Origin: Felis catus
Lineage: Eukaryota
Assembly (NCBI RefSeq): GCF_018350175.1
Contig: NC_058382.1
Span: 49,602,001-49,666,000, forward strand
Length of the DNA stretch: 64,000 nucleotides
Direction: 5' to 3'
The notes under the pieces were generated by a model. That model had not been told where the DNA came from. It made no database searches and saw nothing but the letters and a program-made list of their open reading frames with translations. The position numbers and the translations under genes are program-made. This document shows positions 34,828 to 38,737 of this stretch, piece after piece (the stretch's first letter is position 1; each line of letters opens with the position of its first letter).

Positions 34828-37800
34828 ATGGCCCTTCTCCCGGTTGTCCTTGGCTTCCTCCTCTTTGGCAGCAGTTCTGGTGAGTGCAAGGTTCCGGTGG
34901 GCCCGGCAGCCCCGGACCAAGCCTCTCCCACTCCCCGGCCCCCACCGCCAGAAGCTGGGAACCGAGGACCAAGTCCACACGCGTCTAACCGCCCGCGGGG
35001 GCCGGCCCCCCGCCCACCCTTCTCAGCCTCTCTGGGCGCCTCTCCTCGGCTCCCCACTCCTCCTCCCCCTGGAGGTCCGTCGGGCCCCTCAGACTCAACC
35101 GGACAGGCTGGACCTGCCTCGTTTTGGCCTTGCCCACCCGCTCAAAAGCCGGGGTTCGTCCGGGCTCCTCCACACCTGCCCCTGAGCCGTAGGAGCTCTG
35201 CCTCAAGAATGTCTCCCACGCCCATCCCTTTGGCCCCGCCCCCCGGTCCTCTGTAAGTGGGCAGCCTCTCGGGTCTATGCTGCCCTGAGCGGGGCAACTC
35301 TCTGACCCCAGCCTGCCCCTGCTGCAGACCCAGGGGCCCTGGGAACAACAGCGACTCCAGCAGGACATCCCGGCCCCCACGCCCCGGGACCCTGGGGTCA
35401 GCAGGGGAGGGACACTCCTCTCAGGACACACAGTGGACACCCAGCCTTCGGGCTCTAGGCCCCGCCCAACTCGCGATGCCCTCAACCTCAAGGACCCTCC
35501 TCCACAAGGACACCTGGGGCAGCTGCTGGCTGGGTGACAAGGGGCCGGCTGCCCTGCACTGGCCAAAGCTCTGGGTGCTAGGTTGCCACCTAGGTTCCAG
35601 AGGCCTGGAAGTGCCAGGCTCTATCCCTGGCCCCCTTGGGACACCATCCGCTGACCAGCTGCCGTGTCCCTGCCCCCAGGCTGTGGGGTCCCTGCCATCC
35701 ACCCTGAGCTGAGTGGCCTGTCCCGGATCGTCAATGGAGAGGATGCGGTCCCCAGCTCCTGGCCCTGGCAGGTGTCCCTGCAGGTGAGAGGGAAGCTGAG
35801 GAGAGGTGGGTTAGACAGAGAGGGGTCAGGCGTGAGGGGGAAGGCTGACTGTCTCACCTCTCTCCCCAGACTCGCTCCGGCTTCCACTTCTGCGGGGGCT
35901 CCCTCATCAGCCAGCACTGGGTCGTCACTGCTGCCCACTGCAGGGTCAGGTGAGGCCTGCGTGGGGGCAGTGGGGACGCCCTGGCTGTCAGGGAATGACG
36001 GTCACTCCTTGCCCTTTCCCACCCCTGCCCGGCCACCCACTAGGCTTCCAGGGAATGAAGCCTGGCGGGAAGGGTCTGAGATAGATGGCAGGTGGGGACA
36101 AAGCTGCTGCTATCCGCCCCGCCCCCCAGAGAAAATCCCCACCCTCATGCCCCCCACCACCTCAGGCCCCAGCCTGTTCCACGAGAGCTGGTCTAGTCCT
36201 GTGCCTCCACCTTATAGACGGGGCAACTGAGGCCCAGAGGTCCCCGTGGGAGTGAGGGGCCCAGAAAGGGCTTCCCTCACCTGGGTACCCTCTGCTGCCT
36301 CCTCTCTCTCCAGGAAGAGCCACCGTGTGGTGGCTGGGGTGTCTGATCACGGCTCTGACGAGGAGGCTGTCCAGGTGTTGAGGATCACTGAGGTACCGCA
36401 GGCAGGCCGGCTGAGGAGGGTGGGGCGGTAAGGCCATGGCAGGGCTGCCCCTGGGCGCCAGGGATGGGTGAGGACCGTGGCGGGCAGGGTGTGTGGGCAA
36501 AGAGGACCCCGGCCAGTCGGCTCAGTCCTCACCCACCAAAGCCTTCTTCCCTTCTTTCCCAAGTAAGAAGACTCCTATTCAAACACTGAAGTTTGGCTCA
36601 TTGTAGAAAAGCACAAAAATAGAAAAAACTAAATATCACCAACGTGTCAAGGGCCATTTTCCCACCAGTTTCCAGAGATTTTGTCCGTGCGGCCCCATCT
36701 GTGTTCGCTCTCAACAAGGGCCCCTTGGCACTGAGCCCTCTCCTGGCCTGAGGTCCCTCCCATCCGTGAGATCGGCCATCCTCCCGTGAGGACTGCCCAG
36801 CCCCCATGGCGTCTCCACAGGTGTTTGAATACCCACTGTGGGACCAGGTTTCCGGCCGCAACGACATCGCCCTGCTGAAGCTGGCCACACCGGCCCTGCT
36901 CTCAACAACCGCGTCCCCCGTCTGCCTGCCCAGTGCCAACACCAGCTTCCCTGCCGGCTCCCTCTGCGCCACCACCGGCTGGGGCAAGACCCGGTATAAC
37001 TGTGAGTGTCCTTGCAGGGGCTTTTCAGAAGGGAGACTCATTCGGCTTTTATGGTCTAAATTCCAAGCACACAAATTCCAAGTCGTATATCTTTCATTTT
37101 TTCTTTTTAAACATTTTTAAAAATGTTTATTTTTGAGACAGAGGGTGAGTGGGGGAGGGGCAGAGAGCGAGGGAGACACAGAATCCTTAGCAGGCCCAGG
37201 CTCTGAGCTGTCAGCACAGAGCCCGATGTGGGGCTCAAACCCATGAACCGTGAGCTCATGACCTGAGCCGAAGTCGGATGCTTAACTGACTGAGCCCTTC
37301 AGGCCCTCCTTTCCGTTTCTTTACTTAAAACCCTCTTAATGAAAGAATGAAAGAATAAAGATGAGCTTAAATACCGCACACTTGAAGACGAAGTTGCTGA
37401 AGAAATGCCCAAGTACCAGCAGGTGGCACTCTCACTACGTTGCAACGAGGTCCCCACGGTCCGGTTTCCAGCCTGGACTCCTCTCCAGACTTGAGGCGGG
37501 CGCTTGTGTCAAGCTCGCCGCCGTGAAGTCTGGGCCGGGAGTCAGATGTCCTGGTGTGGTTCGGGGCCCTGGGAGTCCGGCTGGGTCTCCCCTCCCCCGG
37601 CTGCTCCCTCCGCTGACGATCTTCCTCCGGGGCCCCGGGTGCTCCTGCCCAGGCCCCGGCTCACCCTCTGGTCCTTGACCGGGATGGAGGCGGCCAGGAA
37701 AGGGCAGCAGGAGGACGGTGCTCCCCCATCTGCTACCCAGAGCGGCGGGTCCCCAGCAGGGGCCCCGTGAAAAGGACGTCAGCCCCCTTCCCCGGAGGGG

Positions 37801-38737
37801 AGGCAGTGCCCCCCGCCCACCACACGGGCTGCCAGGGCACGGCTCGCGTGAACAGCGGTGCTGGAAGCCATGTCACCACTGCCTGGTGTGGAATCGGAGA
37901 GGAAGGGGTCCCGCAGGGACTGTTAGGTCTGAGGGAAGGTGGGGAGCTCCGTTTCTGAGGTCATGGTGATGGGGAAGGACTGGGAGCAGGCAGGGGGGAG
38001 GCAGGGTCTCCTCCACCCCGGGGTGGGCCGGCTGGGTGAGGGCTCCTGACCTCCGCTCCCCCCCCCGCCCCCGCCCCCTGTGTCCCTCCAGCCAACAAGA
38101 CCCCCGACAAGCTGCAGCAGGCGGCCCTGCCCCTCCTGTCCAACGCCGACTGCAAGAAGTTCTGGGGCAGCAAGATCACGGACGTGATGATCTGCGCCGG
38201 GGCCAGTGGCGTCTCGTCCTGCATGGTAAGGCCTGGCCCCGCCCCCCCGCCGGCCCCGCCCCCGCCCCGCCCCCGCGCGGGCCAGGGGGCTGCTCCCTTC
38301 TGCCGCGTCCGCTCCACCCCTCTGGGCGGCAGTGGCGTTGGGGGCCCCCACGCCAGCCAGCCGGGGGAGAGTGTCAGCCACGTGCCCCAGGCCCACCAGG
38401 AGTAGGCGACAGAGCTGGGCCTGCCACGTGGCCCCGATCGGAGAGCCTCCTGCCCAGTCTCTGCCCCCACACGTGTCATTTGTCTGCACAGAACCTGCGC
38501 GGGGGCAGGTCAGGGCACACCGGGGCCCCGGCAGCCCGCTTCAGGCTTGTAAACAGGTCCTTTCTCCTCCTGCAGGGCGACTCTGGCGGCCCCCTGGTCT
38601 GCCAGAAGGACGGAGCCTGGACCCTGGTGGGCATCGTGTCCTGGGGCAGCGACTGGTGTAACCCGTTCTCACCGGGGGTGTACACCCGTGTCACCAAGTT
38701 TATTTCCTGGGTTCTCGGGGTTCTGGAGGCCAATTGA
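34828..38737 (+). CDS. Third, divergent chymotrypsinogen B-like precursor (gene 3), 7 exons, 263 aa
   Basis: Exons 34828-34879, 35680-35783, 35870-35949, 36314-36392, 36821-37001, 38092-38225, 38576-38737 (52/104/80/79/181/134/162 nt), GT-AG, no stops or frameshifts. [37 protein letters not shown], His57/Asp102/Ser195 and all 10 mature-chain cysteines kept. TATA-like ATATAA 34775-34780, AATAAA 38778-38783. Confidence 0.9.
37120..37308 (-). mobile_element. CanSINE in gene 3 intron 5
   Basis: Reverse-complemented body and head ending ~37308. Confidence 0.85.
37354..38651 (+). repeat. Inverted near-identical duplicate, copy B (gene 3 intron 5 to exon 7)
   Basis: Partner of 12352-13638. Differences seen by eye are a few substitutions and length changes in G/C runs. 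Confidence 0.95.

Follow-up and report, generated by a model that had tools for sequence, protein, structure and literature searches.

What does the third chymotrypsinogen gene of the cat do that its two neighbours do not? The locus lies in a stretch of 64,000 nucleotides from Felis catus (RefSeq assembly GCF_018350175.1, contig NC_058382.1, positions 49,602,001 to 49,666,000), below called the window, in which three chymotrypsinogen genes (genes 1, 2 and 3) are followed by BCAR1. A preliminary description of the window had proposed that the substitutions of gene 3 cluster on the substrate-binding loops, and had suggested an altered specificity, an altered inhibitor sensitivity or a non-digestive role. 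Judged from sequence comparison, gene 3 is a member of the CTRB family that is neither an A-type nor a B-type orthologue. With a probability of roughly 0.6, it would encode a trypsin-activated pancreatic chymotrypsin in which an A-type S1 pocket is combined with rewired extended subsites.

A separate class within the CTRB family

Gene 3 is intact: it has seven exons with the same lengths and phases as those of gene 2, GT-AG splice sites and an open frame of 263 codons. The preliminary description had placed its start at 35870 and so omitted exons 1 (34828-34879) and 2 (35680-35783); the true start is 34828. The translation is identical to Felis catus XP_023101930.1 (P0081), a sequence that stands under several felid records, and aligns without gaps to residues 1-245 of bovine chymotrypsinogen A (66% identity), on which the chymotrypsin numbering used here is anchored. 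It carries a trypsin domain (Pfam PF00089, E 7e-69) and the features of CTRB-family zymogens, namely 245 residues, the Cys1-Cys122 tether, the Arg15-Ile16 activation site and five disulfides (10 Cys), in a seven-exon gene of a cluster adjoining BCAR1. For conservation, 28 gene-3 rows were counted against 39 eutherian A/B rows. The triad His57/Asp102/Ser195, as well as Arg15, Ile16, Asp194, Gly216 and Gly226, is present in all 28 gene-3 rows and Ser189 in 27. Structure prediction, a check that had been proposed beforehand, gave an AlphaFold model (predicted local distance difference test 79, predicted template modelling score 0.81) with chymotrypsinogen A as top structural match. In its indel-free zymogen, S189/G216/G226 pocket, disulfides, activation site and fold, gene 3 thus resembles chymotrypsinogen A and human CTRB1, the Gly226 type of MEROPS S1A. 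Unlike these, it has T35, K62, V70-S71, E90, W94, A104, L114, a sequon at N127, P222-F223 and F234, as well as a distinct signal peptide and a clade of its own. Gene 3 may also resemble CTRC and CTRL, minor pancreatic chymotrypsins with altered extended subsites. An assignment to CTRC itself was rejected: the closest sequence match is chymotrypsinogen A (E 2e-108), CTRC is far more distant (E 1e-51), and gene 3 is located in the CTRB cluster.

The tree was built from 95 rows and 141 columns (residues 35-147 and 218-245, leaving out the conversion tract described below), with one or two rows per lineage taken from about 365 proteins that were gathered by protein searches and cluster listings. 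Gene 3 falls into a clade of 29 rows with support of 100/99 and a stem of 0.25. Orthology to CTRB1 or CTRB2 was rejected on account of this separate clade and of the replacement of D35, T62, E70, K90-N91 and T222. The signal peptide is of a type common to the orthologues and unlike that of genes 1 and 2. It is very improbable that the divergent segments were inherited from an older vertebrate paralogue, akin to the chymotrypsinogen A-like proteins of reptiles and amphibians, and that the rest was overwritten by conversion. His91 and Trp94 are common to gene 3 and these proteins, and constrained trees joining them are not rejected by the approximately unbiased test (p-AU 0.18 and 0.11); however, the best trees place gene 3 within the mammalian CTRBs (100/98), the constrained trees fall short of them by 20-30 log-likelihood units, and such an origin would bear on ancestry rather than on function.

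Gene-3-type proteins occur in felids, hyenas, meerkat, canids, bears, mustelids and seals among the carnivorans, and in pangolins, equids, rhinoceros, pigs, peccary, camelids, hippopotamus, whales, ruminants and aardvark. From these sequences, gene 3 goes back to a local duplication no younger than the ancestor shared by carnivorans, pangolins, perissodactyls and artiodactyls. It probably dates to the placental ancestor, because the aardvark record, a single RefSeq model with no more than 77% identity to any other row, falls in the clade. Among the primate, rodent and bat proteins retrieved, no gene-3 type was found. None of 85 further proteins among the matches listed, drawn from clusters whose seeds were primate, rodent, bat, xenarthran, afrotherian and shrew sequences and including some carnivoran and artiodactyl A/B genes, had more than one of 13 signature residues. 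A region search for orthologues missed known ruminant and aardvark ones, and its blanks are weak. A published account lists only CTRB1 and CTRB2 for human and only Ctrb1 for mouse, with no third CTRB (PMC11937528). Loss of gene 3 in the primate, rodent and bat lineages is, on these comparisons, likely.

Other divergent chymotrypsinogens occur in the tree. Moles and desman (P0002, P0053, P0054, P0057, P0067, P0077) have an expansion of highly divergent forms with altered S1 residues and without Glu70, which is tentatively placed, with long branches, as sister of the gene-3 clade (94/95). Dasyurid marsupials (P0060, P0079, P0080) and Suncus (P0207) have independent divergent CTRB paralogues in which Glu70 is also lost. 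Within the gene-3 class the S1 region has changed by lineage, with Ser192 in mustelids (P0154, P0256 and others) and Thr190 in several suoid rows (P0094, P0106). The class sits in databases under automatic names such as 'chymotrypsinogen B-like'. A full-text literature search, with most subscription journals outside its coverage, found no prior account of a third CTRB paralogue, and passages of PMC10531186, PMC8064638, PMC9210794, 10.1101/2024.07.23.604778 and 10.64898/2026.07.27.740875 contain nothing on a third CTRB gene.

Gene conversion with the B-type gene

Part of gene 3 is nearly a copy of gene 1. The tract at 37354-38651 aligns with 12352-13638 (minus strand) over about 1.3 kb at 99% identity, introns included (1271 matches, 10 mismatches, 23 gap columns), and residues 149-217 are identical in 69 of 69 positions. 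In this core gene 3 is like chymotrypsinogen B (human CTRB2, mouse Ctrb1, gene 1 here); unlike the B type it has Gly226 instead of Ala226, and only 53 of 89 residues agree in 59-147 and 14 of 28 in 218-245. Synonymous divergence (dS) between the two genes is 0.06 in the core, compared to 0.93 and 1.03 in the flanking segments. The cat tract ends at codon 218, the site of the first difference after it, where the gene-3-specific residues start.

The exchange extends beyond the cat. A tree of the tract only rejects monophyly of gene 3 (p-AU 0.0002), and in 8 of 11 pairs the tract agrees with the B gene of its own species or genus in 62-69 of 69 residues, so that conversion with the B-type gene is, by these comparisons, recurrent across lineages. 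Because of the tract, S189, M192, S195 and G216 are common to genes 1 and 3. The earlier statement that Ser189 and Gly216 were kept is therefore correct as to their presence, while their identity is partly the product of conversion. G226 and the 220-loop fall shortly beyond the end of the tract. Recurrent conversion with the inverted B-type gene would keep residues 149-217 alike, with selection keeping the flanking segments apart.

Short repeats stand in intron 5 of both genes (37086-37310 in gene 3 and about 13670-13870 in gene 1), in either case some 30-45 bp away from the tract's 5' edge, and may bound it. The repeat in gene 3 is presumably a carnivore short interspersed element (SINE). A common SINE as sign of an older conversion was considered and rejected, the two repeats being at different sites. 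Chimeric models also occur (P0150; P0068, panda; P0052, black bear; P0024, camel), in which the 5' part of a gene 3 is followed by exon 7 of a B-type gene, or the other way round; they may reflect inversion alleles that run through the tract, conversions of greater length, or errors of assembly or annotation. Exon 3 of camel gene 3 (P0124, P0125) is A/B-like, with Asp35, which suggests, from sequence likeness, a second conversion tract.

The cat locus is in this respect like human CTRB1-CTRB2 at 16q23.1, described as opposed genes that exchange sequence, with 98% identity and a common inversion (PMC11937528, PMC6748972). Unlike at the human locus, cat genes 1 and 2 share 84% identity, and it is mainly genes 1 and 3 that exchange sequence, around exon 6.

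The positions of all features are given in Table 1. Two further observations concern the neighbouring sequence. Exon 1 of gene 1 (16795-16792) offers two donors 3 nt apart, the downstream one (GTGAGT) leading to a precursor of 264 residues that matches the B-type models of meerkat and jackal (P0166, P0172). Between genes 1 and 2, at about 28500-29400, lies a very GC-rich, CpG-island-like region with long overlapping open reading frames on both strands.

Table 1. Features of the chymotrypsinogen locus, in window coordinates.
Feature	Position	Strand	Remarks
Gene 1, B-type chymotrypsinogen (Ala226)	12266..16846	-	conversion partner of gene 3
Gene 2, A-type chymotrypsinogen (Gly226)	31395..34314	+	stop 514 bp before gene 3 ATG
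E-box and TC-box element, PTF1-like, two-turn spacing	34628..34654	+	about 200 bp before ATG
TATA-like box (TATAA), gene 3	34776..34780	+	52 bp before ATG
Gene 3, chymotrypsinogen, 7 exons, 263 aa	34828..38737	+	spliced model
Exon 1, signal peptide	34828..34879	+	29/52 nt identity to either paralogue
Exon 2, Cys1 propeptide and Arg15-Ile16 activation site	35680..35783	+	
Exon 3, Thr35, His57, Arg59	35870..35949	+	
Exon 4, Lys62, Val70-Ser71 (70-loop)	36314..36392	+	
Exon 5, Glu90, Trp94, variable 95-100, Asp102, Asn127 sequon, Tyr146	36821..37001	+	
Short interspersed repeat, intron 5, just 5' of tract	37086..37310	.	many window self-BLAST matches
Conversion tract common to gene 1: 3' intron 5, exon 6, intron 6, exon 7 start (residues 149-217)	37354..38651	+	
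Exon 6, Ser189, Met192	38092..38225	+	133/134 nt as in gene 1
Exon 7, part 1: Asp194, Ser195, Gly216 (converted)	exon 38576..38737	+	
Exon 7, part 2: gene-3-specific 218-245 with Pro222, Phe223, Gly226, stop	exon 38576..38737	+	
AATAAA polyadenylation signal, gene 3	38778..38783	+	
BCAR1 last coding exon, downstream synteny marker	40127..40948	-	E 1.9e-108 to PDB 3t6g_B

Class-specific residues and their predicted consequences

The spliced gene contains the residues named in the preliminary description (H57/D102/S195, S189, G216, G226, T35, R36, R59, R61, K62, R65) and its loops: GVSDH with V70, the 90-loop with G99, DWCNPFS at 218-224, N127-T-S and Y146. Several of the comparisons drawn from them need correction. 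R61 occurs in genes 1, 2 and 3 alike and R65 is found in gene 2 as well; neither is thus a change of gene 3. Tyr146, present but described as retained, is in fact a difference, as genes 1 and 2 have His146. These two genes likewise carry His64 and not Asp64. Gly226 is common to genes 3 and 2, with Ala226 in gene 1, and the loops quoted as reference are those of gene 1, from which gene 2 differs. The weight placed on Gly99 (5/28), Asp218 (3/28), Arg36 (8/28), Arg59 (11/28) and Arg65 (11/28) is not borne out by their conservation in orthologues. Of the proposed basic patch of five, only K62 is both derived and conserved, while the shift in net charge holds.

A lack of conservation of the loop residues among orthologues had been named as a finding that would refute a new specificity; T35, K62, the loss of Glu70, S71, E90, W94, P222 and G226 are conserved, so that for these the claim is not refuted. 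At 14 sites a residue fixed in at least 85% of the A/B rows is replaced in the gene-3 clade. Thr35 stands in 27 gene-3 rows (Asp in 37 A/B rows), Lys62 in 26 (Thr in 39/39) and Glu90 in 26 (Lys in 39/39); position 70 is Val, Ala or Met in all 28, compared to Glu in 39/39, and is always followed by Ser71. His or Tyr91 (Asn in 39/39) and Pro222 (Thr in 39/39) are likewise invariant as a class, as are Trp94, Leu114 and Gly226; Phe223 is found in 25 rows, and Trp219 is poorly conserved (9/28). The N127 sequon is conserved in 22 gene-3 rows and in none of the A/B rows. Net charge, taken as residue counts, averages +2.9 (1 to 5) in segments 33-41 and 57-66 of gene-3 proteins against -0.1 (-2 to 2) in A/B, and -0.7 (-3 to 2) in 84-101 against +4.0 (2 to 5).

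Asp35 and Asp64 are linked to a preference for basic P1' residues, Glu70 in the 70-80 loop is a calcium ligand in S1A proteases, and the preference of CTRC for acidic substrates rests on a basic surface near the active site. After the duplication, the prime side formed by the 35- and 60-loops went from neutral to basic (D35T, T62K), the 84-101 face from basic to neutral or acidic (K90E, K93L, W94), and P222 and F223 remodelled the 220-loop. Calcium binding would be lost with Glu70, and a glycan is predicted at N127. The S189/G216/G226 pocket would direct cleavage to sites after Phe, Tyr, Trp or Leu, with an aromatic P1 preference that P222 and F223 may alter. The surface changes would alter inhibitor sensitivity and shift the P' preference from basic to neutral or acidic residues, and autolysis may occur at Tyr146, which has no counterpart in genes 1 and 2. 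Since the surface changes are old and fixed while the cutting core is kept, gene 3 probably handles substrates different from those of the two familiar copies.

The influence of residue 218 on CTRB activity, to which the preliminary description had referred, is borne out for human CTRB1: Gly226 widens S1 and favours Trp, Asp218 together with Met192 lowers activity, and the replacement D236R raised the efficiency on Suc-AAPF-pNA 12.5-fold (PMC11937528). Asp218 of gene 3, the residue of human CTRB1, is confined to feliforms, and the felid set D218/M192/G226 is that of the human enzyme (PMC11937528; P0156), which predicts reduced activity on standard peptide substrates.

A number of observations speak against this reading of gene 3. 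Gene 3 departs from both paralogues at 48 positions, of which 26 fall within eight active-site loops delimited by customary definitions (16.5 expected, P=0.001), and the differences between genes 1 and 2 are enriched there as well (18 of 36, 12.4 expected, P=0.03). Outside the tract, the mean loop share of differences is 0.516 between gene-3 and A/B proteins (1092 pairs) and 0.510 among A/B proteins (739 pairs). The clustering that had been put forward thus matches the way in which chymotrypsins ordinarily vary, without an excess of its own, and among the fixed class-specific replacements the enrichment is weak (7 of 14 in loops, 4.0 expected, P=0.06). Segments 95-100 and 218-221 are more variable among gene-3 orthologues than in A/B (entropy 1.98 vs 1.38 and 1.37 vs 0.65), and such variation between orders would also come from relaxed constraint; within felids both are nearly fixed. 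The pairwise ratio of nonsynonymous to synonymous substitution (dN/dS) is about 0.3 in residues 59-147, as for gene 1 vs gene 2, and positive selection on gene 3 is unsupported. Three phocid models carry a low-quality flag, and in an otter model Asp194 is replaced by Pro. Three ruminant pairs match in only 57-59 of 69 tract residues, and the placental age hangs on the one aardvark record. Two matching RNA-labelled runs (24 runs listed, 20 with the stretch) were left unused, as word shares of 0.63 and 0.89 are high for a mostly intronic query and the runs are therefore probably DNA.

The loop share at baseline, the standard S1 residues and a dN/dS below 1 would fit a redundant minor chymotrypsin that went through early relaxed constraint and then purifying selection with its specificity essentially unchanged, as would the apparent decay in phocids and the lack of a gene-3 type among the retrieved proteins of primates, rodents and bats. 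We nevertheless regard redundancy as unlikely: the replacements are fixed in 28 rows at sites near-invariant in 39 A/B rows, two charge patches have reversed their sign, and the cat tract stops at the very codon at which the gene-3-specific residues start.

Expression and significance

The place of action is likewise read from the DNA. An E-box and TC-box stand at -200 in gene 3, at -246 in gene 1 and at -176 in gene 2, and three of the seven matches to two patterns in the 64 kb lie in the three CTRB promoters; the spacing was fitted after the sequence had been seen. Boxes of this type are described in CTRB1 promoters (PMC5839029). Because the element is placed as in genes 1 and 2, we infer a zymogen secreted by the pancreas, which would be activated by trypsin at Arg15-Ile16. 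A non-digestive function, outside the pancreas or as a regulatory protease or near-inactive binding protein, would be in keeping with the distinct signal peptide, the N127 sequon, the loss of Glu70 and the long N-terminal extensions, perhaps from alternative starts, that certain models from dog, bear and pig carry. This role, suggested in the preliminary description, finds no support in a promoter that resembles those of genes 1 and 2, TATA box included, and is improbable given the full conservation of the triad and of a trypsin-type activation site.

The time of action may differ from that of other chymotrypsins. In giant panda pancreas, ENSAMEG00000005540 (chymotrypsinogen B-like) falls from 4452 to 1751 to 71 counts per million (CPM) from newborn to suckling to adult, a period over which CELA1, trypsins and CTRL rise (PMC7467380), and the 14 major proteins of dog pancreas mRNA were called nonglycosylated (PMC2110786), though the dog orthologue of gene 3 carries the N127 sequon. 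Both would suit a perinatal chymotrypsin that is switched off after weaning and tuned to milk or colostrum proteins or to the control of early zymogen activation. The panda transcript, however, could not be tied to gene 3 and may instead come from the apparently degenerate panda B gene, which also bears the RefSeq name chymotrypsinogen B-like, and the CPM shifts are compositional. We hence consider a perinatal role unlikely. Similarly doubtful is the composite picture of an ancestral placental third chymotrypsin B, lost in human and mouse and for that reason never studied, mainly perinatal, with a basic prime side, an N-glycan and no calcium site. In this picture it would have stayed distinct throughout the placental radiation, even as conversion time and again replaced its catalytic half by that of the adjacent B gene, and the conversion boundaries would map the function-defining residues. 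The B-type gene of bears (P0068, P0052) has Tyr58, which breaks a disulfide, and Ser216 in the panda model; it looks degenerate, while bear gene 3 is intact.

The intact third paralogue is carried by cattle relatives, pig, horse, dog and cat. As a trypsin-activated pancreatic chymotrypsin with rewired subsites, it would be a so far uncharacterised enzyme of the pancreas in livestock, pets and large-animal models of pancreatitis. Chymotrypsins A and B are textbook enzymes, and the human CTRB locus affects the risk of pancreatitis, pancreatic cancer and diabetes (PMC11937528, PMC11018521). Because the tract is 99% identical, reads or probes from exon 6 cannot separate gene 1 from gene 3. Gene 3 is a natural chimera in which the 149-217 core of a B enzyme is combined with different N-terminal barrel loops and a different 220-loop, and the contribution of the extended loops to chymotrypsin specificity is therefore directly testable.

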